Source: an uncultured virus (IMG/VR IMGVR_UViG_3300009376_000006)
Taxonomy: Duplodnaviria > Heunggongvirae > Uroviricota > Caudoviricetes
Length of the DNA: 64,000 bases
IMG/VR virus record: IMGVR_UViG_3300009376_000006
Reading direction: 5' to 3' (one strand)
Shown here: in pieces, positions 1,467 through 61,101 of the stretch
How the letters are laid out: the number at the start of each line of letters is the position of its first letter
How positions within the stretch are numbered: position 1 is the first letter of the stretch
Notes under the pieces: model-generated
Databases searched by the model: none
What the model was told of the DNA's origin: nothing
What the model saw: only the letters and a program-made list of their open reading frames with translations
Position numbers and translations under genes: made by a program

Positions 1467-4456
1467 AGCGGGCCTTGGCAACACTGCTTGCCGGGGCTCT
1501 CTTGGCGACATCGTGCGCTGGCGGGGGGCCACCACCAACCACAACTACAACGACGAGTATTCCTCCCAAGTCGTCCGTTCTTCTGGAAGATCACGCTCTC
1601 TCGTTCGTTCCAGAGGAGGACTCGTTCTCGTTTGAGAACTTCGGTGGAGGGGAACCACCCGCTGACCTGACGGTCAACATGGCCCGCCGTCTCTACGGGG
1701 ACGATCAGGTTTGCCAAGAGGTGGTGGACAACCGCTGCACCCCGTACCCGGTGATACTCCAGTTGATCCAGCAGGCCAACCGGTCGATGCGCGGGGGGCT
1801 GTGTGAGGGTTTGGCGGTCCTGAGTCTCCGTTTGGAGGGCGACACGGCGGCGTTGACGACATTCCAGCAGGTCCAGCAGGCCGCACAACTGGTGAAAGAG
1901 GACCCGGCCCTGCTGTCCGAGATCGCCTACTGGTATGTCACCCAGTTCTCTCCCGAGGTGCAGGAGCGGGCCACCGCCTACCGGTCCATGTCCCCTGCGG
2001 ACCTTGCCCGAATACTCATGGACGACTTCGCCGCTGCCGAGGCAGGAAATCCACACACGGGGTACACGGTCGGCATCTACAGCGACATGGGGGGCCACGC
2101 TGTCACGCCTTACAGGGTTGAAGAGACAGCCGACGGGTACCGCATCTACATCTATGACTCCAACTGGCCCACAGCGGAACGCTGGATAGACGTAGACGCA
2201 GACGGCACATGGGTGTACGCCCTCGCCGCCACGAACCCGTCGGAGGAGTCGTCGGCGTGGTCGGGCGGGGTCGGCACGATGGAACTCACCCCGATGGGGT
2301 CTAGGCAGGGGCCTTTCACTTGTTCGTTCTGCCCACAGTCGAACAGTGCCAAGTCGGGCACGATGCTGACCGTGGCGGCGACCGGCGAGAAGCAGATGAC
2401 CATCCAGATCGAAACCGAGTCGGGGGACAGGCTCGGCTACTACGACGGTGGGTTTGTCAACGAGATCGAAGGCGCTACCTACCGGTACCTGATCTCTGGC
2501 CCCAGCACGGCGGACCCGGTCCTCGTGTTCCTGCCTCCCGAAGTTGAGGTGTTCAGCGCCGACGTTGGACAGATTGAGGCACCCGCTCCGGTTGACGAAC
2601 CAACGGTTGATGAACCGGTGGAGGAAGAGAAGGAACAGTTCTCGCTGCTGCTGCTCAACGAGGAGAAGTCGATTCAGGTAGAGGCCGTCGTGGAGGAGGC
2701 GGTTGAGGAACCCGTCCCCGGTGAGCCTGCCGTGGAGGAAGTGTCGGTACTGGAGATCACCGAAACGTCCGTCGATGTGGGTGATTTGGAGGAAGCCACG
2801 GTTTCTGTTGCCGTTGAGGCTGTTGAGATCAAGATTGAGTTGGAGGACGAGCAGACCATTGAGGTTGAGTTCGCTCCCGACGACGTTGCGGAAGAGGCAA
2901 TAGAGATCGGCATCACCGATGTTGAGGGCGAGATCGTCGCTGAGGTCGAAATTGATCTCACGGAGCGGACGGTGGAGGAAACCCCGACGGTCGTGGAGAT
3001 CGACTACGACGAGGAGACCGGAGAGGTCACGCAGGAGGAAGAGGAGATCGAAGCGTGGGTCGCTTCGGACGCCGAGTACTTCCAAGCGGTCGTTGAGGAC
3101 CGTGTGGAGGAGGTGCTGGGCGAGTCATGGGCCGAGGAGGTCACCGAGGACGAGGCATGGGAGGACGAGGAGACCGAGTCCCTGCTGACAGAGGTGCTGG
3201 CCGAGGTGGAGGACGATTATTGGGAGGACGAGTACTGGGAGGAAACAACATACGACGACGACTGGTTTGAGGAGCAGGAAGACGAGGACGGGTGGAGGGA
3301 CGACACCGAGAATCCCTTGGTTGTAGAGGCTCCGGTTCTCATCGGACAGGCTCCGGCCACTAGGTCGTCGGTGGTCAGGTCGTGGACGACGGTGGACTTG
3401 GAGACTCTTTCGGAGACGACGGACCGAACAGAGGTTTATCAGGACGAGGCTGGAACGCTGACAGAAGTCTGGGTGGATACCCACTGGGAGGTTCGGGAGA
3501 CGACTTCGGAGTGGACGGAAACCCTCCACGAGACAGGAACCCTGAACACGTATTCCGACAATGGGGAACTGGTTGAGGAAACCGTATGGGAAACGGCGGT
3601 CTGGGAGGAAGACTCCGAAGAGTCGTCGGTGGTGACGGATTCGTGGGTCACATCGGACCTAGTGGCGACTGACAGGGATTGCCTGTACCGGCAGAATCGG
3701 GAAGATCCATCTCGGATGGTGTTTGTTCGGCTGCCCCTTCAGGGCGACCCGTGGGACAACGACACCGATGAGAAGCCGTCAGGGTGCGCTACACCGGGGG
3801 AGGCGACGACGGTCGCCCGCGAGGATGCGGCGACCAGTACCAGCGAAACCACGACGACGCATGAGCGCAACGCCACTGACGGCTGGTGGTACGAGGAGGA
3901 CACCACAGTCACGACGACAGTGACCACCTACACGGATGTGACGACGGTGATCTGGTCTGACGGCTATACGGCCATCACCGAGGGCGACCCGTACGATGTG
4001 ACGACGACCGTTACCACCTCCAGCGACTGGCTGAACGATTGCGTAGTCGCAGACTCTGTGGGGACCGCATGGACAGGGTTCGGGGACTTCTGCATCGCGG
4101 ACATCGAGTCGGGGACGTTCAACGAAGATGTGGTCACGTTTGACGTGACGGAAACAACGACCATTGAGATCACTGCCTCTACTGACCTGACATGCGACGG
4201 CTGGCCCGGCACAACGGCAAACGGGGAGGACGCATACGGCGACCCGTACATCTACCTCTATGACGCATCGGACGATTCGCTATTAGAGAGCGACGACGAC
4301 GATGGCTGCACCTGCGGCAACAACTGCCCCGATTCTGGAAACTGCTGGGACTCGTTTATCAGCAGGACGCTCTCGCCCGGTACTTATTACGTGGAGGCAA
4401 GGGTGTACAGCGGTTCTACGTCGGGCTGGTATACTTTGACCATCGACACGGCCTGA
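1463..4456 (+). CDS. Large acidic lipoprotein: putative papain-like domain, Glu/Thr-rich stalk, C-terminal PPC-like domain
   Basis: Signal peptide with lipobox LATSC; GGLCEG/GHAV/YDSN motifs; DPYIYLYD...LSPGTYYVEA at C-terminus. Confidence 0.7.
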   Translation: MKRALATLLAGALLATSCAGGGPPPTTTTTTSIPPKSSVLLEDHALSFVPEEDSFSFENFGGGEPPADLTVNMARRLYGDDQVCQEVVDNRCTPYPVILQLIQQANRSMRGGLCEGLAVLSLRLEGDTAALTTFQQVQQAAQLVKEDPALLSEIAYWYVTQFSPEVQERATAYRSMSPADLARILMDDFAAAEAGNPHTGYTVGIYSDMGGHAVTPYRVEETADGYRIYIYDSNWPTAERWIDVDADGTWVYALAATNPSEESSAWSGGVGTMELTPMGSRQGPFTCSFCPQSNSAKSGTMLTVAATGEKQMTIQIETESGDRLGYYDGGFVNEIEGATYRYLISGPSTADPVLVFLPPEVEVFSADVGQIEAPAPVDEPTVDEPVEEEKEQFSLLLLNEEKSIQVEAVVEEAVEEPVPGEPAVEEVSVLEITETSVDVGDLEEATVSVAVEAVEIKIELEDEQTIEVEFAPDDVAEEAIEIGITDVEGEIVAEVEIDLTERTVEETPTVVEIDYDEETGEVTQEEEEIEAWVASDAEYFQAVVEDRVEEVLGESWAEEVTEDEAWEDEETESLLTEVLAEVEDDYWEDEYWEETTYDDDWFEEQEDEDGWRDDTENPLVVEAPVLIGQAPATRSSVVRSWTTVDLETLSETTDRTEVYQDEAGTLTEVWVDTHWEVRETTSEWTETLHETGTLNTYSDNGELVEETVWETAVWEEDSEESSVVTDSWVTSDLVATDRDCLYRQNREDPSRMVFVRLPLQGDPWDNDTDEKPSGCATPGEATTVAREDAATSTSETTTTHERNATDGWWYEEDTTVTTTVTTYTDVTTVIWSDGYTAITEGDPYDVTTTVTTSSDWLNDCVVADSVGTAWTGFGDFCIADIESGTFNEDVVTFDVTETTTIEITASTDLTCDGWPGTTANGEDAYGDPYIYLYDASDDSLLESDDDDGCTCGNNCPDSGNCWDSFISRTLSPGTYYVEARVYSGSTSGWYTLTIDTA

Positions 4457-24718: not shown

Positions 24719-26926
24719 ATGCCAGAGATCATCAACCCAGATAACCCCGACGACGAACTCACCGCTGGGGGCATCGAAAAGAACAAGGAAGCGTTCCTTT
24801 CTGCCAAGGCGCGCTTCTCTGTCGATGCCAACGGTCTCGTTGAACTCAACCGGGCGTTCGGTTCCCTGAACCGTAACGTCAGTGTCTTCAAGAAGGAGAT
24901 CACGTCCGCACTGGCGGTCACCCGTCAGTTCCAGACGGCCGTCGGTGGCCTCTCCAGCGCACTGGGCAAGGCTGGCGGTGGGATGAGCACCTTCACGGCG
25001 TCGGGCGGGAGCACTGCTGCTGGTGGCATCCAGTCCATGCCGGACATGCTGGGTTCCGGTTCCAAGCCCGGCGGGTACCTCCCCCCGGGCCCCACGCCCG
25101 CTGGCACGCCCCCCGCTGGGACCCCAGCCTCTGGTGACGGTACTGGTGACAGCACTGGTGGAGGACGTGTAAAGAAGTTCATTAACTACCTAGGGGGTGG
25201 GGCGGCCACCATCTCTGCGGGCGCTGACATTCTCACTGGGCTACTCCAAACTAGTGCCAAGAACATTCAGGGTAGGGCCCCCTACACCCTTACTGCTGAC
25301 CGCACCGGTCTCCTGTTCCGTCAGATGTTCGGTGGCACCCAACTCCAGTACCAGAGTCGGTGGCGTCAGCCCCTGACGGGCCGCATGATCGGGCCTGAGG
25401 GCATCGAAGACATGCTGAAACTCCAGACCACCATGGGGATAGACCCCGCCTCCATGCTGTCTGGGGTTGAGGGCATCCGTGTTGCTTCAGGCTTCGGCTA
25501 TTCCACGGCCGACGCCACGAGGATGATTGAGGCGCTGGGGTCCCCCGGCTCCTCCAACATGATGACCCTCATGCTGGGCACCGGCCTGTGGGGCCCGGGC
25601 GGTCAGGCCCGCGACCCGATGGACGTTATCCGCACCGTGGTTCAGCGAATGGGACTCACGAACGAGTCCATGGTCCGTGGGGCCTTCCAGCCCGGGTCCA
25701 TGACCAGATCCAACCTCGCACGAACCGGCCTGCCCATGGACATGCAGGACATGGTCCTCCAGTACGCCATGCAGAACATCGAGTACCGTGAGCGCGGAGG
25801 GAAGGGTATGTACGACCCTTCCAACGAGGCCCACCGTAACCGCATGGGTTTGGACAACGAGTACGCCATTGAGCGAGAGAAGACCGGCGTGCTGGAGGCG
25901 GAGAGGGCAGAGCGGTTCTATCGCAGGCAGGTGGACAACTTTGCTCAGTTGGAGCGGAACACGCAGGCTCTGATCAAGACCTTTGGCCTGCTGGAAGACA
26001 GACTTAGTGGTATTGTGGGTGGACAGATCAACGTCACTGGTCACCCTGTTACTAGGTTACTTGGTGGCACTGCTGGTGTTGCGGGCATGCTGATGGGTTT
26101 GACTGGTGCGACACCGGCTGGGGCGGTCATTGCCGGTGTTGGCTCCCTGCTGGGCGCCATTGGCGACCCGGCCCCTGACATCACCGAGCCCGGCATGGAT
26201 GCGTCCTTCCAGAGCAGCCTCAGGAGTATGGCCGCCGCTGCTGCTGATGAGGGACACAACCTGACCCTCACGAGCGGTGTTCGGGATGTGCAGAGACAGC
26301 GTGAACTGTTCCTTGAGAGGCACGACGAGGACCCCAACGGCGAGCGAGAGTTTGAGGGCAAGCGCTACACCCTCAACGCTGTGGGCGAGGCGAAGGGTTA
26401 CGCCGCTCCTCCCGGCTCGTCACTGCACGAGGTGGGCATGGCGGCTGATCTGGGTCCTGAGTCTGCGTGGCCGTGGATCAAGGCCAACGCAGCGAGGTTT
26501 GGTCTCCGCACTGCTCCCGACGAGGACTGGCACGTTGCGCCTGCTGGAATGACCCGGGCGAAGTACAACGCCACACACGGTAAGCCTTCACAGACCTCTT
26601 CCCGCACCACCGCCGCTCGTCCCACGAGCCAGTCCACTGGTGGGTCTGCTCTTTCCAGTGCCCCCCAGCGGTCGGCCAGCAACGTACACATGACCCGAGA
26701 CATGCACATCCCTGAGGCCATCCGCACGTACGAGATGGCCAACGCCGCTCGTGTACGTTCGGGTGTGGGGGACGAGAGCCCCGGGACCGGTGCCAGCGTG
26801 ACCATCGCACCGGTCATCCACCTGAACGGTACGGGCAATGACGCAGCCGACGCACAGAGGTTGGCCCAGAAGGTTATTCAAATGATCGAAACGTCCGAGG
26901 CCGTGCGGTCTCTTAGGAGGTCGTGA
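24719..26926 (+). CDS. Tape measure protein with M15 (VanY-like) peptidase domain
   Basis: Position; Gly/Ala-rich helical sequence; SGVR...AAPPGSSLHEVGMAAD...EDWH zinc-peptidase motif. Confidence 0.85.
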   Translation: MPEIINPDNPDDELTAGGIEKNKEAFLSAKARFSVDANGLVELNRAFGSLNRNVSVFKKEITSALAVTRQFQTAVGGLSSALGKAGGGMSTFTASGGSTAAGGIQSMPDMLGSGSKPGGYLPPGPTPAGTPPAGTPASGDGTGDSTGGGRVKKFINYLGGGAATISAGADILTGLLQTSAKNIQGRAPYTLTADRTGLLFRQMFGGTQLQYQSRWRQPLTGRMIGPEGIEDMLKLQTTMGIDPASMLSGVEGIRVASGFGYSTADATRMIEALGSPGSSNMMTLMLGTGLWGPGGQARDPMDVIRTVVQRMGLTNESMVRGAFQPGSMTRSNLARTGLPMDMQDMVLQYAMQNIEYRERGGKGMYDPSNEAHRNRMGLDNEYAIEREKTGVLEAERAERFYRRQVDNFAQLERNTQALIKTFGLLEDRLSGIVGGQINVTGHPVTRLLGGTAGVAGMLMGLTGATPAGAVIAGVGSLLGAIGDPAPDITEPGMDASFQSSLRSMAAAAADEGHNLTLTSGVRDVQRQRELFLERHDEDPNGEREFEGKRYTLNAVGEAKGYAAPPGSSLHEVGMAADLGPESAWPWIKANAARFGLRTAPDEDWHVAPAGMTRAKYNATHGKPSQTSSRTTAARPTSQSTGGSALSSAPQRSASNVHMTRDMHIPEAIRTYEMANAARVRSGVGDESPGTGASVTIAPVIHLNGTGNDAADAQRLAQKVIQMIETSEAVRSLRRS

Positions 26927-30529: not shown

Positions 30530-33347
30530 TTCGATACACGGCTCCACGTCCCAGATTCACCGGGCCATCGTCCAGTACTCCAGCACCACCACGGGCGAGA
30601 TTCAGGTCATCATCCCGTCGGTGACGGGTCTGGACACGACGGTCCCGGTCTCCTACTTCGGTCGTGAGGCGCACCCCTTTGAGAACGACTGGGTGGTCCC
30701 CAACGTCGGGTCCTCCATCGTGGTCTGCCGGGAAGACGAGGACTACACCAGTGTCTACTGGCTGAACACCACCTACAACCCGGTGCGTGCTGACGTGGGC
30801 GAGGTGAACCCATCCAACTACAACTTCGGTCCCAGCGGATCGGAGTCACTCTTCGACCTGTCTGACTGGGCAGGGCACCCAACATCTGCGGGCCTGTACT
30901 TGGGCTCCACCTACATGGGGTACCACACAGGCTCCAACGGGTCCGACGGGTGGCGTACCTACATGGACTACACCGGTAAGTTCTATCTTGGTGGTACCAG
31001 CGGCTCCCTTCAGTGGGACGGTTCTACGCTAACCATTCTCGGCACTGCTGTTATCGGGGGCACCGCAGCCTCCACGGTGGTAAGTGGTGCCGCCTCCGGT
31101 GGTACGGCTGCACAACCTGACCATGATTGGGTAGATGGGACTGTCGGGGGCTGGGTGATCACCACGGGCCTGTTGACCGGTGGTACAAGTTCCCACAAGA
31201 TAGAACTGGATCAGGGCAACAAGCGCATCTCCGCTGGTGGTGGCCGTGCGGTCATGCTCGCAGAGTCCAGTGGTCGTGTGGCTATAGGGATCGACGCTGA
31301 TGCCGATAACGCCCCGGCGTACAACAGTTCAGGCGGCGATGTTGTCATGGAGCGCACGTCTGGAGGAGCCTCACGGTTCTCCTGTGGTAACAAACTCACG
31401 TGGGACGGTTCGAATCTCGCTATCACCGGGACGATCACGGGTGGTTTGTTCCAGACTGCCGCCTCTGGTGACAGGGTCACCTTGGATGGCGCTGGCGGTC
31501 GGATTGAGTTCGATGTCAGCAGCGAACCTTCCGGGTATGCGTCTGGCTATATGAATGCCACTCTGAGTGGTACCAGTTCCTACATGGTGCTTAGGTCACC
31601 AAAGATGCACACCGGAACGTGGGCACCGGGCATCGTGATATATGGTCACGCAGACGCTACTAGTTCCATCGACTTTCAGTTGGCTGACCATCCGAATGGG
31701 GCAGGTCTGACCATTAATGATGCTGGTGTCAATGTCTCAAATGCAAACTTTGGTGTCGGTAACTCCAACCCGTCGTACAAGTTGGACGTACAAGGAACGG
31801 GCCGCTTCACGGGAGTACTGACGCTGGGGAGCAGCATTGACGGGCCGCAGGACTTCATTGTTGGTAACGGTGAAGGTGAACAGATGCTGTTCCAAGGGTC
31901 CAGCAACATCACGTACTTCATGTCTAACGGGGTGTACCGTGCTTACTTCAACGCTAGCGGTGACTTTCTTCCGTATCAAGGTTCCACATACAACCTTGGT
32001 TCCTCCAGTTTACACTGGGAGTATGCGTACATCGACATAGTGAGCGTCTCCAATGAGGTACGGCTAGGCAACGGCACTGCTGGCGATCCGTCGTTGACGT
32101 TCAGCAGCGACGACGACACGGGCGTATACCGTAAGAACGAAGACCAGATAGGTGTTAGCACCGGGGGTTCTGAGCGCGGGTACTTCAGTAGCGCTGGCTG
32201 GGTCGGCAGCGTAGTCGGCAATGCTTCTTCCGCAACCAACGCCACCAACGCCACGTACATAGGCGTAGCGGCAAATAGTGCCAATGCCACTAGATACCCA
32301 ATATTTGCGACTGGGACAAGTGGAAATCTACAACCTTTAGCAGACGCTGGACTTACATATAACCCAAGCGCCAACAGTTTAGGCATCGGCACCACTGCTA
32401 GTAGTTCTTATTCGCTGTCTGTCTCCGATGGTTCCAGCGACGGTATCTTCCTGTTCAAGCCTTCTGTTCTGGCAATGGGTAGCAACCACAATGGTTACAG
32501 TATGAGTGTGGTGGGCGGCATTCCAGATGGTGTCGGAATGGGTGGGGAGATCAGGCTGGGTGGTGGCAGCAGGGGCGATGGAGACGTGAATGTTGTCCAG
32601 TTCAAACAGGGCGGTATTGAACGGATGCGTATCAACAACGGCGGCAACATCGGCATGGGCTCCATATTCAGTGTGAGTAATGCTCCGGCTGCCAACCTGC
32701 ATGTCTCTTCAGGCACTTCAGGCGACTGCGAAGTTATCATTGAGGCAGACACTGACAACAATAATGAAAACGACAACCCTCGTCTGATCTTTGAGCAGGA
32801 CGGAGGCATTCAAGAGTCAGCGATTTGCCAGCAGAACAATTACCTAGAACTTATGAACTCGGTATCCCTTAGTGGGGGTATTCGATTCTCCACCGGAAGT
32901 ACAAACGGGTATACTAACGCTGCGGCACGGCTTATCATTGACTCGTCCGGTTACATTTATCCACAGTCACTGACTGCTGCTGCCGGTACTGGCCTGAACG
33001 TCAACGCATCCTTCGGCATGATGCAAAAGGACACCTCGTCGCTGCGGTACAAGACCCTCGCTAGCGAAACGGTTGCTAGTCAGATGTCACTTGACACGAT
33101 TGATTCTCTTGAACCGAAGGTATTTGCCTATAAAGCGGCACCTGAGTTCCCGCACGTCGGTCTTATCGCAGAGGACGCACACGCAGTCAGTCCGTATTTG
33201 GTGCTGTGTGACAACAACGATGGTGACCCACTGCCCGATTCAGTGTACTGGCCTGCTGTGACGAGTCTGCTGATCAACACCGTAAAGGATTTACGTACTA
33301 GACTGTTAGTAGCCGAATCAAGGATAGCCACATTGGAGGCATCGTGA
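30510..33347 (+). CDS. Baseplate spike (gpV-like N-terminus) fused to a long fibre and S74-type chaperone
   Basis: N-terminal IHRAIV..GEIQVIIPSV..VPNVGSSIVV OB-like fold; C-terminal SSLRYK...GLIAED...LINTVKDL. Confidence 0.7.
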   Translation: MSIPQTDSIHGSTSQIHRAIVQYSSTTTGEIQVIIPSVTGLDTTVPVSYFGREAHPFENDWVVPNVGSSIVVCREDEDYTSVYWLNTTYNPVRADVGEVNPSNYNFGPSGSESLFDLSDWAGHPTSAGLYLGSTYMGYHTGSNGSDGWRTYMDYTGKFYLGGTSGSLQWDGSTLTILGTAVIGGTAASTVVSGAASGGTAAQPDHDWVDGTVGGWVITTGLLTGGTSSHKIELDQGNKRISAGGGRAVMLAESSGRVAIGIDADADNAPAYNSSGGDVVMERTSGGASRFSCGNKLTWDGSNLAITGTITGGLFQTAASGDRVTLDGAGGRIEFDVSSEPSGYASGYMNATLSGTSSYMVLRSPKMHTGTWAPGIVIYGHADATSSIDFQLADHPNGAGLTINDAGVNVSNANFGVGNSNPSYKLDVQGTGRFTGVLTLGSSIDGPQDFIVGNGEGEQMLFQGSSNITYFMSNGVYRAYFNASGDFLPYQGSTYNLGSSSLHWEYAYIDIVSVSNEVRLGNGTAGDPSLTFSSDDDTGVYRKNEDQIGVSTGGSERGYFSSAGWVGSVVGNASSATNATNATYIGVAANSANATRYPIFATGTSGNLQPLADAGLTYNPSANSLGIGTTASSSYSLSVSDGSSDGIFLFKPSVLAMGSNHNGYSMSVVGGIPDGVGMGGEIRLGGGSRGDGDVNVVQFKQGGIERMRINNGGNIGMGSIFSVSNAPAANLHVSSGTSGDCEVIIEADTDNNNENDNPRLIFEQDGGIQESAICQQNNYLELMNSVSLSGGIRFSTGSTNGYTNAAARLIIDSSGYIYPQSLTAAAGTGLNVNASFGMMQKDTSSLRYKTLASETVASQMSLDTIDSLEPKVFAYKAAPEFPHVGLIAEDAHAVSPYLVLCDNNDGDPLPDSVYWPAVTSLLINTVKDLRTRLLVAESRIATLEAS

Positions 33348-34078
33348 GTATTCCAACAACCAGTAGCAGGGTTGACCTGTCCCTACTTCATCCGCGCTTT
33401 AAGAAGCGTCTGGAAGCGTTCTTTGAGGACCCGAGGATCAAGGGCCGTGTGTCCGTGTCCTCTGGGTGCCGCTCCTACGCACAACAGATGTACTTCTACA
33501 AGAAGTACCGTGCTGGTAAGGGCAACCTCGCTGCCAACCCGGATCGGCGCTTCGGGCCGAAGGGCCTTGACGGTCGCGGCATCTGGCGGGGGAGTTGGCA
33601 CATGCAGCAGGAGGACGGCTGGTGCTACGCCGTGGATTTCCATCGTCTCAAGGGGGACATCAAGAAGTGGGAAATAAACAACATCGCCAAGGAGTACGGC
33701 CTCCATCCGACTGTTGACGGAGAGTGGTGGCACCACCAGCCCCGCCGCTCCTCTGAGTGGTTCGACGCCCCGGCGATGTTGTCCCAGCCCGAGCCCGAGG
33801 ACACTGTTGAGCCCACGGTGGACTGGGCAGCCATCGCAAAGTTCGTCAAGGATCTGGAGACCTACGTTAGTGCCAACCCCCTCCGCAGGGGCAGCAGGCA
33901 CGAGGCGGTTCGTGTCCTACAGCGCAAGTTGGGTGACCTTGGCTTCGATGCTGGAACGCCGGACGGCATCTTTGGTAGAATGACTACTAGGGCAGTCAAG
34001 CGGTACCAGCGGGCGAACAAACTCGTGGTAGACGGAATTGTTGGTCCCAACACTTGGGCCAAGATTATGAAGGGCTGA
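33344..34078 (+). CDS. Endolysin: M15-type peptidase plus peptidoglycan-binding domain
   Basis: SGCRS...SWH...AVD...EWWH; LRRGS...VLQRKL...DGIFG..T..AVKRYQ..DGIVGPNTW. Confidence 0.88.
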   Translation: MSIPTTSSRVDLSLLHPRFKKRLEAFFEDPRIKGRVSVSSGCRSYAQQMYFYKKYRAGKGNLAANPDRRFGPKGLDGRGIWRGSWHMQQEDGWCYAVDFHRLKGDIKKWEINNIAKEYGLHPTVDGEWWHHQPRRSSEWFDAPAMLSQPEPEDTVEPTVDWAAIAKFVKDLETYVSANPLRRGSRHEAVRVLQRKLGDLGFDAGTPDGIFGRMTTRAVKRYQRANKLVVDGIVGPNTWAKIMKG

Positions 34079-57442: not shown

Positions 57443-57925
57443 ATGATCCTCATCACGATGGACACTCTGGCCCACCCCGGGGATACGGTGGGCGAGAGGC
57501 TCCCGAGCATTGAGGGACGGCGCCTCTGGAACCTCCTGTTCCAACAGTACAATGGAAGTATCATCCTCATTGCGGATGCAAGGGACGACAGGGACCATCT
57601 TGAACACTGGCTTAAAGCGGGCAACTTCAAGCCCAGCATGATCGACTACGCCTCCGACAACAGCCCTCGGTCCAAGGTGCTCCGTGCCACGCAGTTGAGG
57701 AACGCCTTCGGGAGCGTCCACTGGTTCGTGGACGTGGACCCCTACAGCGCACAGTTGGCTCTGGAGGACGGACTCCCTACCCTCATCACGGTCACTCCGG
57801 CCGTGCCACGGTCCGAGTGGAGGGACGACCGGCCAGACAAGAAGAAACCGTGGGACTCCCTCGTGGAGGAGATCGACCGGCAGAAGATCATGCGTGCCGA
57901 GGCGAACTGGGGTGAGCGGGAGTGA
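57443..57925 (+). CDS. Hypothetical protein, possible degenerate HAD-like fold
   Basis: MILITMDTL...WL...FVDVDP pattern. Confidence 0.5.
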   Translation: MILITMDTLAHPGDTVGERLPSIEGRRLWNLLFQQYNGSIILIADARDDRDHLEHWLKAGNFKPSMIDYASDNSPRSKVLRATQLRNAFGSVHWFVDVDPYSAQLALEDGLPTLITVTPAVPRSEWRDDRPDKKKPWDSLVEEIDRQKIMRAEANWGERE

Positions 57926-59349
57926 AGGTCTACTTCGGTGGGGCGGAGAAGGGAACGTACCGTTCTATCCTTCTGTCCGCCGGGGTCACCTCGTTCGCTG
58001 TCAACCTCACACAGTTCCCCATCCCCAAGCGCAAGGCTCTGGACCTCCAAGAGAAGTTCGGCGGGGGTGACGTTCTGGTCTACGCCTCAGAGGCAGACGA
58101 GGACATTGACCGCTTCGATGCCTTCGTGCGCCAGCACCTAGACGACATTGCAGTCGTCATCGGCCCCCCTGACTACGACGGGGCATGGCTGGGCCAGAAG
58201 TATTCTCCTGTCTGGAACGACAAGGAGGACATGGAGAGGCTCGCTTGGCTCTGCGAGAAGTACGGTCGTGTGGCCATCAGTGATCGTGCAATCAACAGCA
58301 AGACACTCCCGCGCATCAACCAACTCAAGCAGCGCTGGGGGTGCCACATGACGGCCCTCACGTCGAAGGTGGACTCCATCGAGGCAGGCCCGTGGGACGC
58401 TGTGGTAGTGGGCTCGTGGACCTCGGTCATCCGCTACGGCGAGACTCAGGTCTGGGACGGCCATGGCCTCCGTCGGTACCCAGCCCAGCAGAAGGAGTCG
58501 GCCCGTAAGAAGCACCGGGCCGACATCGTCCGTCTGGGAGTGGACTACGACGAGGTAATAGACGATTCAGTGTCGTCTCTGGGCCTGCTCGCCATCCGTT
58601 CGTGGTTGGCGTGGGCCGGGGCCTATGACCCCTCGGGGACCTCATCGGGTGAGGATGAGTTTGGGCCTAGTAGCGATCAAATGATTGCTATACCCCCCGA
58701 TGAGCACGACGGGGGTTCAGGGTCTTCCAACCTCCCTGATATTGTTATCGGTACCGTTCTAGAGCGGCACGAAGACGAGAAGGTATTGCTACCGGGTCTG
58801 GGTCTGGAAACGGTCACCTCCATAGGGGAGCAAACCACCTCTGAGCAGGGGGAACACCTAGAACTGGGCCCTACAGAGGTCACCACTGTGGCCAGTACCG
58901 GGGGCCTCCTAAGACAATGCAATAATTGTTATCTGGCCTCCCGATGTCCTGCATTCAAGGAACATTCAGAATGTGGCTTCAAGTTGCCCGTGGAGATAAG
59001 GACCAAGGACCAGTTGAACGCCGTCATGCGGGTCATGCTGGAGATGCAGGCGAGCCGTGTCCTGTTCGGCCGGTTCGCTGAGGAGTTGGAGGGGCAGGGT
59101 CTGGACCCGGCACTCTCGGCCGAGATGGACCGTCTCTTCACGCTCATCGACAAGATGAAGACCGTGAACGAGTCCCGTGAGGTGCTCTCCATCTCCATGG
59201 AGTCCCGGGGCAGCAGCGGGGTCCTGTCCCGTCTCTTCGGGTCCAAGGCTGGAGAGACCGCTCGCCAACTGCCGGGCGGTGGTCTGGACGCCGAGGAGAC
59301 AGACCAGTTGTACGGGGACATCATAGACGGGACGGTGCTTGACAGATGA
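57922..59349 (+). CDS. TGT/DpdA-like TIM-barrel protein with C-terminal Cys cluster
   Basis: KVYFGG, PVW, SW...RYGET.VW motifs; CNNCYLASRCP...EC. Confidence 0.45.
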   Translation: MKVYFGGAEKGTYRSILLSAGVTSFAVNLTQFPIPKRKALDLQEKFGGGDVLVYASEADEDIDRFDAFVRQHLDDIAVVIGPPDYDGAWLGQKYSPVWNDKEDMERLAWLCEKYGRVAISDRAINSKTLPRINQLKQRWGCHMTALTSKVDSIEAGPWDAVVVGSWTSVIRYGETQVWDGHGLRRYPAQQKESARKKHRADIVRLGVDYDEVIDDSVSSLGLLAIRSWLAWAGAYDPSGTSSGEDEFGPSSDQMIAIPPDEHDGGSGSSNLPDIVIGTVLERHEDEKVLLPGLGLETVTSIGEQTTSEQGEHLELGPTEVTTVASTGGLLRQCNNCYLASRCPAFKEHSECGFKLPVEIRTKDQLNAVMRVMLEMQASRVLFGRFAEELEGQGLDPALSAEMDRLFTLIDKMKTVNESREVLSISMESRGSSGVLSRLFGSKAGETARQLPGGGLDAEETDQLYGDIIDGTVLDR

Positions 59350-59504
59350 CCGTTCGGGAGTACTTCGAGAATGACGAGGACGACCCCATCCTCTTCGACG
59401 CCTTTGGCGTGGAGGGAGATTACTGCTACTACTGTGAGGAGTACACTCCCCTCACCGATCTGTCGTGGGACGGCCTGTGCGTTGAATGCGCTGAAGAGCA
59501 GTAG
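59346..59504 (+). CDS. Small acidic zinc-finger protein, 52 aa (not in ORF track)
   Basis: ATGA coupling; CYYC...CVEC. Confidence 0.6.
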   Translation: MTVREYFENDEDDPILFDAFGVEGDYCYYCEEYTPLTDLSWDGLCVECAEEQ

Positions 59505-59506
59505 GT

Positions 59507-59899
59507 ATGCCCGGGACCCCAGAATGGAACGGTAAGGCCCCCTGTCGTGGTCGGGCGCACTTCCTGTGGTACCCGCCGATGGAGTCCAAGGACCCCAACG
59601 CTTGGTACGAGATGGGACGGGTCATGTGCTCCACCTGTCCGGTCTGGGAGGACTGTCTAGAGTACGGGCAGGGCGAACGCTGGGGCATGTGGGGCGGCCT
59701 GACCCCCAAGGAGCGTAAGAAGCCCTCCACGACGCACGGCTCGTGGATTGACTTCAGGCGTGGTTGCAGGTGCCCGGTATGCTTTGCAGCGCACGATGAT
59801 CAGATGGCTGAGGAACCGATTGACCCGGACCTGTTGCCTGACCAGACCGTTCCGGTGTATGGTGATCCGAGCAGGCTCCTGTACGACATCACGTCTTGA
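59507..59899 (+). CDS. whiB: WhiB-family protein with extra C-terminal H...CxCxxC module
   Basis: W..KAPC...CSTCPVWEDCL...GMWGGLTPKER; HG...GCRCPVC. Confidence 0.88.
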   Translation: MPGTPEWNGKAPCRGRAHFLWYPPMESKDPNAWYEMGRVMCSTCPVWEDCLEYGQGERWGMWGGLTPKERKKPSTTHGSWIDFRRGCRCPVCFAAHDDQMAEEPIDPDLLPDQTVPVYGDPSRLLYDITS

Positions 59900-59920
59900 C
59901 CCCGACACCTGCTCTCTCCT

Positions 59921-60547
59921 ATGCGCTCTATTGGTATTGTCCTGTCTAGCCTGCTAGTCTTCGCTTCGTGCGGGGGTGAGTTTGGTATCGACGCTGGTGA
60001 AAGCCGCATGCGGAGCATCAGCGGACCGGGGTTCGATTCCCCGCACCTCCACCAAGGGGCGACCGAGGAACCAAGTGCCTTCTCTGAGAACCTGAACAGG
60101 AACCCGCGCTCTCAGAAGGTCCCCTCGGTCGTCCCTGAGGACCCCCCGGTGCTGACGGTGGTCTTCCACCGGCCTGTGCCTACCACCACGACCTCCACGG
60201 TCCCTCCCACGACCACCACGACGCTCCCTCCCGAGCCGCCTACACTGGCGGAACTGATCGGACAGAACTTCGAGATGGAGGACTGGGCGTGGGCGCTTAA
60301 AGTGGCTTTCTGTGAGTCTTCCGCACAGCCCGAGGACGTGGTATCGAAAGCGGTACACAAGCGGTCGGGAGCGTCGGGCTGGTTCCAGCACCTCCCCAAG
60401 TTCTGGGAGTATCGCACCGAGGCGGCGGGAATCCCCGGGGCCGACATCATGGACCCGGTCGCCAACGTGGAGGTGGCGGCGTATCTCCTTTACCAAACGC
60501 CGCAAGGTAAAGGCCACTGGTACCCGTCCGAACACTGCTGGGGATGA
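59921..60547 (+). CDS. Lipoprotein with Thr-rich linker and lytic transglycosylase (SLT-like) domain
   Basis: Signal peptide with FASC lipobox; PTTTT linker; VAFCESS...ASGWFQ...DPVANVEVAAYL. Confidence 0.75.
   Translation: MRSIGIVLSSLLVFASCGGEFGIDAGESRMRSISGPGFDSPHLHQGATEEPSAFSENLNRNPRSQKVPSVVPEDPPVLTVVFHRPVPTTTTSTVPPTTTTTLPPEPPTLAELIGQNFEMEDWAWALKVAFCESSAQPEDVVSKAVHKRSGASGWFQHLPKFWEYRTEAAGIPGADIMDPVANVEVAAYLLYQTPQGKGHWYPSEHCWG
59952..59960 (+). promoter_or_regulatory. Extended -10 promoter for the mini-tmRNA
   Basis: TGCTAGTCT (TGnTAnnnT) ends 11 nt before G1; TTGGTA lies 18 nt upstream of the hexamer. Confidence 0.5.
59972..60054 (+). ncRNA. Mini-tmRNA: tRNA(Ala)-like domain only
   Basis: GGGGGTG/CACCTCC-ACCA acceptor stem with G3-U70; GGTATCGAC D-loop; CGCTGGTG/CATCAGCG helix; GGAC; CGGGG-TTCGATT-CCCCG T arm. 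Confidence 0.85.
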
Positions 60548-60562
60548 TGGTAAACTAGACGA

Positions 60563-61099
60563 ATGCCAGAACCAGATGGTCCACAGTTTCAGAATCTATG
60601 GCAGTCCGCCATGGACGATGCGTTTGCCAATCTTGATGCGACCTCCGACGAGGAGTTGGAGCGGCACGTGCCGGAGGCGGTAGACGAGCCAGAAGATGAC
60701 CGCCCACCGTCCCCGTTCACCGTGGTTGACGACCCCGTACAGAACGCTGTCTGGGACCGCATAATGAATCCCTACAGGGAGCAGCAAGAGCCCCCGGAGT
60801 TGGGGGAAAGTATGAGTCGGTGCGGGTACTGCGGTGAGGTCATCGACTACTGCCAAGGCCACGGCGAGGCCGAGCGCGCAGAGTTCGGATTCGACATCGA
60901 CAGCGACGAGTACGAGGCCCGGCGTGAGATGTTTGAGGCTGAACTTGACCCTGACGCATACTTCGCCCGTGACGAACCTGTTGTTCCCCCGGAAGACAAC
61001 TGGAGGGATTCTCAAAGTGTCTCCTTTAAGGATGTCTCCGACGAGGACATCGAAAAGCACGAACGGTTCTGGCGGGACCTCGGGAACAGGACCTCCTGA
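60563..61099 (+). CDS. Acidic hypothetical protein with C..C...C.H motif
   Basis: Extended -10 six nt before the ATG. Confidence 0.65.
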   Translation: MPEPDGPQFQNLWQSAMDDAFANLDATSDEELERHVPEAVDEPEDDRPPSPFTVVDDPVQNAVWDRIMNPYREQQEPPELGESMSRCGYCGEVIDYCQGHGEAERAEFGFDIDSDEYEARREMFEAELDPDAYFARDEPVVPPEDNWRDSQSVSFKDVSDEDIEKHERFWRDLGNRTS

Positions 61100-61101
61100 A
61101 C

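Follow-up and report, generated by a model that had tools for sequence, protein, structure and literature searches.

Transfer-messenger RNA (tmRNA) reduced to its tRNA-like domain (TLD) has been described from the mycobacteriophage DS6A, and two articles (Hudson, Lau and Williams 2014, PMC4131195; PMC11915505) and the tmRNA Website refer to it as a "TLD only" or "CDS-less" (without a coding sequence) form. According to the two articles, within which Mao et al. 2009 is cited for the DS6A-type RNA, a DS6A-like TLD-only molecule strongly inhibits tmRNA, perhaps by titrating SmpB. Here we describe an RNA of this kind from an uncultured marine phage (IMGVR_UViG_3300009376_000006), of which a stretch of 64,000 nucleotides (nt), called the window below, was analysed. 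The RNA at 59972-60054 is a phage mini-tmRNA of the TLD-only, DS6A-type form, about 80 nt comprising just a TLD with a short P2 stem, and, judged from its sequence context, it is highly probable that the same DNA also serves as codons 18-45 of a gene for a cell-wall hydrolase. A TLD-only phage tmRNA is thus already known from DS6A; the nested and translated form was not found in print, and within the accessible parts of the literature searched (on tmRNA and phages, DS6A, and tRNAs in coding sequence) no tmRNA-like gene inside a coding frame was found described. The features that make up the locus are the following.

59921..60547, + strand: SLT-like muramidase gene containing the RNA, probably secreted (lipoprotein-type), 208 amino acids (aa); from the list of open reading frames (ORFs), with orthologues in 28 viral loci
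59921..59971, + strand: signal-peptide codons MRSIGIVLSSLLVFASC, ending in a lipobox-like Cys; read from the sequence and from orthologue leaders
59932..59940, + strand: second TGnTAnnnT match, TGGTATTGT, in the signal-peptide codons
59952..59960, + strand: extended -10-like motif TGCTAGTCT (TGnTAnnnT) in codons L-L-V, its hexamer ending 11 nt before the first base of the RNA (G1)
59972..60054, + strand: TLD-only ("mini") tmRNA, 83 nt; Rfam RF00023 73.9 bits, own model R1 85.7 bits
60055..60241, + strand: Pro/Thr-rich linker codons, of variable length across the orthologue alignment (A1)
60242..60544, + strand: lysozyme-like/SLT catalytic domain, residues about 108-208, predicted local distance difference test (pLDDT) 82-97 (AlphaFold2)

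The Rfam match to tmRNA (E 7.5e-27, gathering score 47 bits) covers the TLD only, about 10 nt replacing the mRNA-like part of some 300 nt. With no mRNA-like domain, resume codon, tag reading frame or pseudoknots, the window RNA is not a complete tmRNA. The parts that can be read from its sequence are a 7-bp acceptor stem with a G3-U70 pair, a discriminator A and an encoded CCA, a P2 stem with a small cap hairpin, and a T arm, and its minimum free energy fold contains the 7-bp acceptor stem with the ACCA end free. We take the acceptor features (G3-U70, discriminator A and CCA) to be identity elements for alanyl-tRNA synthetase. Across 24 aligned mini-tmRNAs, the third acceptor pair is G-U in 23, and there are compensatory changes in both P2 and the T stem. 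ARAGORN called neither a tRNA nor a tmRNA on the window, and standard annotation would therefore miss the RNA.

The preliminary description of this stretch had claimed that the ORF 59921-60547 reads through the RNA without a stop and that G1 is the first base after the lipobox Cys codon. The ORF list and the Rfam match bear out the first claim, and the coordinates the second: the Cys codon TGC occupies 59969-59971 and is followed by GGG from 59972, so that G1 stands at codon position 1, and the 83 nt of the RNA plus one base make up 28 sense codons (codons 18-45) with no stop. The translation begins MRSIGIVLSSLLVFASC GGEFGIDAGESRMRSISGPGFDSPHLHQ, and GGEFGIDAGESR is the peptide predicted if this RNA-bearing ORF is translated. 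A single open in-frame insertion is unremarkable on its own, since phase 0 is open in 46 of the 94 other unique mini-tmRNAs among the matches listed; it is recurrence in relatives that lifts the nesting above chance. Metagenome loci were found with a DNA pattern blind to reading frame, and in at least eight further ones, on other marine contigs (L064, L076, L089, L128, L133, L134, L138 and L141) a mini-tmRNA lies in frame a few codons past the leader of a gene that ends in an SLT domain, preceded by a peptidoglycan-binding-like segment. Of eight nested relatives submitted to Rfam, seven pass the tmRNA model, at 54-68 bits, L076 not being called. A protein search from L128 added the RNA-bearing L182 and L186-L189 and the RNA-less L183-L185. 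When an SLT motif was sought downstream of the RNA in any frame, G1 fell in phase 0 of the SLT frame, with no stops, in all 14 loci that have such a motif (window included), and the spacing between G1 and the motif, 331-517 nt, always varied in steps of three. Fourteen protein clusters (136 member sequences, 251-281 aa) share this N-terminus, every one of them with PGFDSPHLH. The distance from G1 to the T arm is 58 nt in all 11 distinct nested RNAs; in 90 free-standing RNAs, among the matches listed, it ranges over 40-70 nt and splits 28/37/25 modulo 3. Throughout, the RNA sits in this one gene, just past the leader, in at least three types of N-terminal module. Two properties of the sample count against taking these numbers at face value: the nested loci share descent and are not independent events, and five of the 14 (L182, L186-L189) came from a protein search that favours in-frame cases.

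Clusters P0013 and P0014 show a difference of exactly one codon within the RNA; there the RNA-coded peptide has one residue fewer and a different first half (GG-DRFRPEESRTSEPQG...), an in-frame length change of 3 nt. Two further candidates for nesting, L037 (a 526-aa open frame) and L048 (a 157-aa ORF), were rejected, the real start lying after the RNA in both and no protein context extending across it.

Constraint on synonymous sites, which the preliminary description had named as a check, could be assessed in eight genes of the RNA-rich clade I of the SLT-domain tree (below). By codon position, the variable sites number 6/10/7 in the 27 RNA codons, 53/44/82 in the 93 linker codons and 46/41/92 in the 101 codons of the SLT domain; with 7 of 27 third positions variable in the RNA versus 92 of 101 in the SLT domain, synonymous sites are constrained in the RNA only. 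Among the 11 distinct nested RNAs, changes on both sides are seen at four of the five P2 pairs (98% of cells paired), pairing in the T stem is complete (100%), and G3-U70 is kept in all, and the peptide encoded over P2 varies freely and without a stop (SKESRTRTLAA, HRETRTRTSVG, LSESHTWNALG, AGESRMRSISG). For this comparison, the nested RNAs were aligned by fitting them to the model, which placed the acceptor line one column out of register; its 57% pairing is an artefact, and the acceptor stem was instead read directly from sequence and fold. The substitution patterns indicate that selection acts on both readings, on frame and length for the protein and on base pairs and synonymous sites for the RNA. 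Residues 1-100 of the protein have a pLDDT of about 47-64 (AlphaFold2), and the earlier view of a structured RNA occupying a disordered linker agrees with the synonymous constraint, the P2 compensation and these low values alike.

The ORF itself, 59921-60547, is probably a working gene for a secreted, lipid-anchored cell-wall hydrolase of the SLT type. A search with the ORF found the orthologous C-terminal domain in 28 viral loci, in none of which did Rfam or our model R1 find a tmRNA or tRNA within 2 kb. Alignment A1 holds 15 of these loci and the window; it omits duplicates or near-copies (L010, L014, L016, L018, L028, L030 and L031), close relatives of L009 and L026 (L012 and L027), two loci cut by a contig end (L019 and L032) and two in which the open frame over the match has only 76 aa and the conserved domain motifs are absent (L020 and L021). 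This amounts to the comparison of SLT genes with and without the insert that had been suggested in advance, and its outcome is clear: all 15 RNA-less orthologues have a gap of about 21 columns exactly at the position of the window's RNA, and 14 of them have kept, in the corresponding position, a short leader of basic and hydrophobic residues with Cys at its end. This makes the start at 59921 credible and agrees with the claim that this DNA encodes a signal peptide. The window leader starts with MR..., continues with a hydrophobic stretch and ends in VFASC, close to the lipobox consensus of lipoproteins and, with Phe at -3, not canonical; the boxes of most RNA-less orthologues are canonical (for example TVSC, TASC, VVAC and VVGC). 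Of the A1 columns, 25 are invariant, among them C131-E132-S133 in all 16 sequences, and Glu132 of the E-S motif is presumably the conserved catalytic Glu of the lysozyme-like fold. Pfam SLT (PF01464) is matched by nine of the 16 family members at E <= 0.01 (best 3.9e-5), and the best Foldseek rows for the window protein are lytic transglycosylases (phiKZ gp144, Slt70 and P. aeruginosa Slt) with probabilities of 0.96-0.98. Some of the same evidence speaks against such a function: the window protein scores 18.1 bits against Pfam SLT, below the cut-off of 21.3, the Foldseek E values of 0.05-0.1 do not reach 0.001 (root-mean-square deviation 2.6-3.7 Å over about 90 columns), and the lipoboxes of several nested relatives are not canonical (QLGC, QLWC, AYGC, QLGW).

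The signal-peptide codons had also been said to contain a promoter for the RNA, an extended -10 ending 11 nt before G1, and TGCTAGTCT is indeed found there. Taken alone, this match is weak. The comparison between loci favours the claim: TGnTAnnnT is present within the 75 nt before G1 in 11 of the 14 RNA-bearing loci versus none of 19 RNA-less orthologues in their first 90 nt, and across the RNA-bearing loci, it occurs in three different codon contexts. Eight beta-type genes carry it at -18 in the codons Cys/Trp-Tyr-Pro/Ala and vary at the n positions only, the change from Cys to Trp preserving the TG of the motif; in L128, it stands at -24, and in L133 the same 9-mer is written in other codons (T-A-I-L). 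Several observations pull the other way. In L133, the motif lies 46 nt upstream of G1; a plain TATTAT or TACTAT, ending 6 nt before G1, is all that L182, L188 and L189 have in its place; over the whole window, TGnTAnnnT shows no enrichment (38 matches against 45 expected); and a sigma-70 two-hexamer scan returned no promoter sites. Among the matches listed, free-standing RNAs have the motif within 30 nt upstream in nine of 84 cases versus four in a downstream control window, and in the window's nearest RNA relatives (the L087 group), TGCTAAACT ends 5 nt before G1. All in all, we lean towards an internal extended -10 promoter, as predicted from the motif and its distribution, being written into the signal-peptide codons. 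Elsewhere in the window, TGnTAnnnT was seen by eye inside or bordering gaps between + strand ORFs at 4427, 4539, 7364, 53380, 55697, 56647 and 60548, the last (TGGTAAACT) directly after the stop of the SLT gene; this placement, its enrichment being judged by eye, points to the motif as a marker of real promoters in this phage. The single "terminator" of the scan, at 59960-59980, was rejected, as it coincides with the leader and acceptor region.

In an SLT-domain tree of 38 distinct rows, clade I holds 11 genes with the RNA and two without, and clade II 24 genes without it and the window; the distribution needs four changes, at least two of them forced by well-supported branches, in a sample that is biased, the RNA itself having led to most of the clade-I loci. 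One N-terminal type is split, L182 having the RNA and L184 lacking it. Both flanks of the window RNA resemble RNA-less clade-II genes, and the RNA is 88-89% identical to free-standing RNAs (the L087, L105 and L154 groups, among the matches listed) and 79-83% identical to the other nested RNAs. The pattern points to separate capture or gene conversion of the window RNA, which some 80 nt cannot settle. The leader ends of the RNA-less orthologues L012, L009 and L006 read C-G-A-H-Q-V-A-V-G, and the first RNA codon, GGG, and the last codons, CAC CAA/CAG (in the window, 59969-59977 and 60047-60058), match C-G-A-H-Q; in L182 (1501-1600), the RNA end is followed by H-Q-V-G-V-G, which resembles the same RNA-less sequence. 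The match may be the scar of an ancestral RNA loss, or microhomology used for insertion. The closest relatives of the window RNA among the matches listed (L105, 1201-1284, and L142, 1188-1270) are free-standing with few convincing ORFs nearby; in L105, a small hydrophobic ORF, MKFSTGLIVLVIIIVILAM..., follows the RNA.

The explanation of the locus as a whole that we favour, with reasonable though not high confidence, starts from the nested dual coding. The RNA would be transcribed from the extended -10 promoter in the signal-peptide codons and would also be excised from read-through transcripts by host tRNA-processing enzymes, RNase P cutting at G1 and the 3' end being trimmed to the encoded CCA. 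It would then be a competitor of host tmRNA for SmpB and alanyl-tRNA synthetase, dampening trans-translation, a role that, argued by analogy, we give an even chance. A scan of 57 window ORFs found no SmpB gene, a point that weighs against this part of the explanation, and the partner of the RNA is presumed to be the host's. Full-length enzyme would come solely from upstream-started transcripts translated before, or instead of, processing, and the 28 residues encoded by the RNA would form a disordered tether after the lipobox Cys. The transcription start, the RNase P cleavage, the target of the RNA and the trade-off between RNA and enzyme are all what we infer for the locus. Given its anatomy, a cut at G1 would part the leader from the enzyme; that RNA maturation and enzyme output are functionally coupled in this way is a tentative idea and in our judgement somewhat unlikely. 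Less likely again is that the position itself has been selected, mini-tmRNAs having been captured more than once at one site, directly past the export signal of this WhiB-adjacent hydrolase gene, because RNA maturation and enzyme production exclude each other there. If that were true, the RNase P cut at G1 would strip the signal peptide and leave a stop-less leader mRNA that itself needs ribosome rescue, and the phage would switch between blocking host ribosome rescue and exporting a wall hydrolase from one locus. We also considered that the RNA might leave the mRNA in a splicing-like way and rejected this idea, as the length of 83 nt is not divisible by three and the frame would be broken on rejoining.

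Where translation begins matters for the alternatives, and three further features bear on it.

59507..59899, + strand: WhiB-like gene directly 5' of the nested gene; Pfam Whib 42.5 bits against a cut-off of 23.6, PHROG WhiB families
60008..60010, + strand: ATG inside the RNA, used by the automatic gene call P0001 (179 aa, 100% identical)
60137..60151, + strand: GAGGA and GTG, a possible downstream start read from the sequence; GAGGA lies 7 nt before the GTG at 60149

The preliminary description had noted that 59921 lacks a clear ribosome-binding site and that the true start could lie downstream. The former stands, as the window has no Shine-Dalgarno sequence before this ATG; the latter is made improbable by the leader being kept in frame by all relatives. 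One could nevertheless suppose that in the window the upstream part is a relic and that translation starts from ATG 60008 or GTG 60149, leaving the RNA untranslated, and the missing ribosome-binding site, the GAGGA before the GTG and the automatic gene call, which starts inside the RNA, all weigh on that side and against the longer gene. We hold this improbable, however. A leaderless product could not be exported, and leader, RNA and SLT domain form one open frame in the window and in 13 other loci; the leader ATG of the orthologue L017 equally lacks a ribosome-binding site, and as the WhiB stop codon lies just 21 nt upstream of 59921, re-initiation there may be possible. The two downstream codons were accordingly rejected as main starts, ATG 60008 because the Met is not conserved in the nested relatives, where it is mostly Thr, and GTG 60149 because it would yield a leaderless 133-aa product against an in-frame upstream leader in all relatives. 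All nine clade-I RNA-bearing loci examined have a strong GGGGG/GAGG ribosome-binding site before the leader ATG, and a search with the window's N-terminal 60 residues matched solely the window's own 179-aa gene call. It is more improbable still that the RNA-like stretch is a dead remnant or a mere protein-coding motif, its Rfam match reflecting ancestry. Protein constraint could conceivably explain the invariant PGFDSPHLH, but not that third codon positions within the RNA are as constrained as the first and second, that the P2 arms vary by compensatory pairs where the peptide varies freely, or that G3-U70 persists in every distinct nested RNA; the RNA-less orthologues lack the peptide altogether. 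An assembly chimera, in which a tmRNA-like fragment was joined to a phage gene, is hardly credible. Metagenome depth does spike over 59970-60083, because the tmRNA 3' ends of other organisms map there, but near-identical contigs from three studies cover the junctions and the same architecture recurs in many other contigs: X3 record 11 covers 59921-61100 with one difference, and X5 record 17 and X6 record 24 bridge 59400-60409 with three differences each, none within 59921-60054 and one of them, 60108 G>A, changing Arg63 to His.

A more serious contender, which we hold possible while rating it clearly below the favoured explanation, is that the RNA is a tolerated passenger in a permissive linker: both products are made, only the DNA is shared, and the frame is kept for the sake of the enzyme. 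It differs from the favoured explanation solely in denying the coupling. The linker is disordered and highly variable; RNA-less versions of the gene are common (the 28 loci and L183-L185), so the enzyme does not need the RNA, and free-standing mini-tmRNAs are the rule, so the RNA does not need the gene. That phase 0 is open in 46 of the 94 other mini-tmRNAs listed fits the same view. What tells against such a passenger, though not decisively, is a site that stays the same, just past the leader, across at least three N-terminal module types, a window RNA that is nearer to free-standing than to nested RNAs, hinting at a second capture at that site, and a promoter-like motif written into the leader codons.

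Outside this gene, mini-tmRNAs are numerous. A census by DNA pattern scan gave 29 viral-contig loci and at least 119 metagenome stretches, which combined hold at least about 100 unique mini-tmRNAs; at least about 90 unique ones are free-standing, many in tRNA arrays. The Streptomyces phages LuckySocke, GiJojo, Shaeky and pSt2308 have homologous, unannotated RNAs of 81-82 nt within their tRNA arrays, with 82-87% identity to the window RNA over 55-70 nt and Rfam tmRNA scores of 57-61 bits. In GiJojo (L002), a "hypothetical protein", gene 44 (1489-1731), overlaps the mini-tmRNA (Rfam 1491-1571); this is probably a mistaken protein prediction on top of an RNA gene that lacks annotation. Rfam called a tmRNA in four of five fetched phage loci; the fifth, Mycobacterium phage Shandong1, has no such call, and its match adjoins an integrase. 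Matches in this and other Mycobacterium phages were rejected as mini-tmRNAs, as they cover the 3' part of the RNA only, and would seem to be attachment-site fragments.

The surroundings of the nested gene are those of a phage. All long ORFs of the window lie on the + strand, and Pfam identifies portal, capsid, tail sheath, tube and baseplate proteins as well as a family A DNA polymerase, RecA, DnaB and a primase; against 50,697 phage records, the region itself gave no match by megablast or tblastn. In L133 and L141, too, an ORF homologous to the WhiB-like gene stands before the nested gene. Two genes upstream of the locus, a 475-aa protein (57922-59349, + strand) matches the PHROG family "queuine tRNA-ribosyltransferase" (phrog_887, E 5.7e-33), and we take it to be probably a DpdA-like enzyme of 7-deazaguanine DNA modification. 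In the tail and baseplate region, a VanY (D-Ala-D-Ala carboxypeptidase) domain lies inside a 735-aa protein (24719-26926, + strand) and PG_binding_1 at the end of a 244-aa protein (33344-34078, + strand), so that the nested SLT enzyme is not the sole wall-active protein of the phage. Within the SLT gene, at 60369-60482, contig depth jumps over the stretch encoding WFQHLPKFW, and assemblies break there, contigs ending near 60409; the X5 and X6 variants are nearly identical to the window upstream of about 60394 and about 80% identical downstream. The pattern is suggestive of a mosaic junction within the SLT domain.

Annotators and gene finders alike normally assume that genes for stable RNAs and genes for proteins do not overlap. 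Here, a tRNA-like RNA is conserved inside an ORF with selection visible on both readings at once, and one stretch of DNA apparently serves as export signal, promoter, small RNA and protein linker, which makes the locus a natural and comparatively well-sampled case of how far DNA can be multiply coded. It bears on the competition of tRNA-processing enzymes with ribosomes for one transcript, and on the effect of phage mini-tmRNAs on host ribosome rescue. TLD-only tmRNAs, known in print from a single phage, turn out to be common in marine and soil phages and to have been overlooked: ARAGORN misses that of the window, and the Streptomyces phage records carry no annotation for theirs.

Compared with the closest described system, the window RNA is like that of DS6A in being phage-encoded, about 80 nt long and composed of an acceptor, a T arm and a short P2, with no tag frame or pseudoknots, and our model R1 matches the DS6A RNA at 56 bits. 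The arrangement is different, however: the DS6A RNA occupies the gp33-gp34 gap, whereas that of the window would be translated in frame within a protein gene and has its apparent promoter in signal-peptide codons. The Streptomyces phage mini-tmRNAs are homologous to it but stand among tRNA genes and presumably derive from tRNA transcripts, and GiJojo gene 44, while overlapping an RNA, lacks the conserved protein context of the window locus. Structured RNA and coding sequence are combined in one nucleic acid also in SgrS/SgrT, RNAIII/hld and the tag ORF of tmRNA. There, a regulatory RNA carries the code for a small peptide; at the window locus, a stable tRNA-like RNA lies within the gene of a larger enzyme, and, unlike in such cases, making the mature RNA would cut the mRNA. 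Rickettsia palindromic elements, structure-forming inserts that lie in frame in permissive parts of proteins and are read through, come near in another respect; to our knowledge, they are selfish and have no RNA product, whereas the window insert belongs to a functional RNA family and appears to be under selection at the RNA level. Finally, tRNA-like structures are cut by RNase P from longer transcripts in the tRNA punctuation of mitochondria and in the mascRNA of MALAT1, but those elements lie between coding regions or in noncoding RNA, and that of the window lies inside an ORF.

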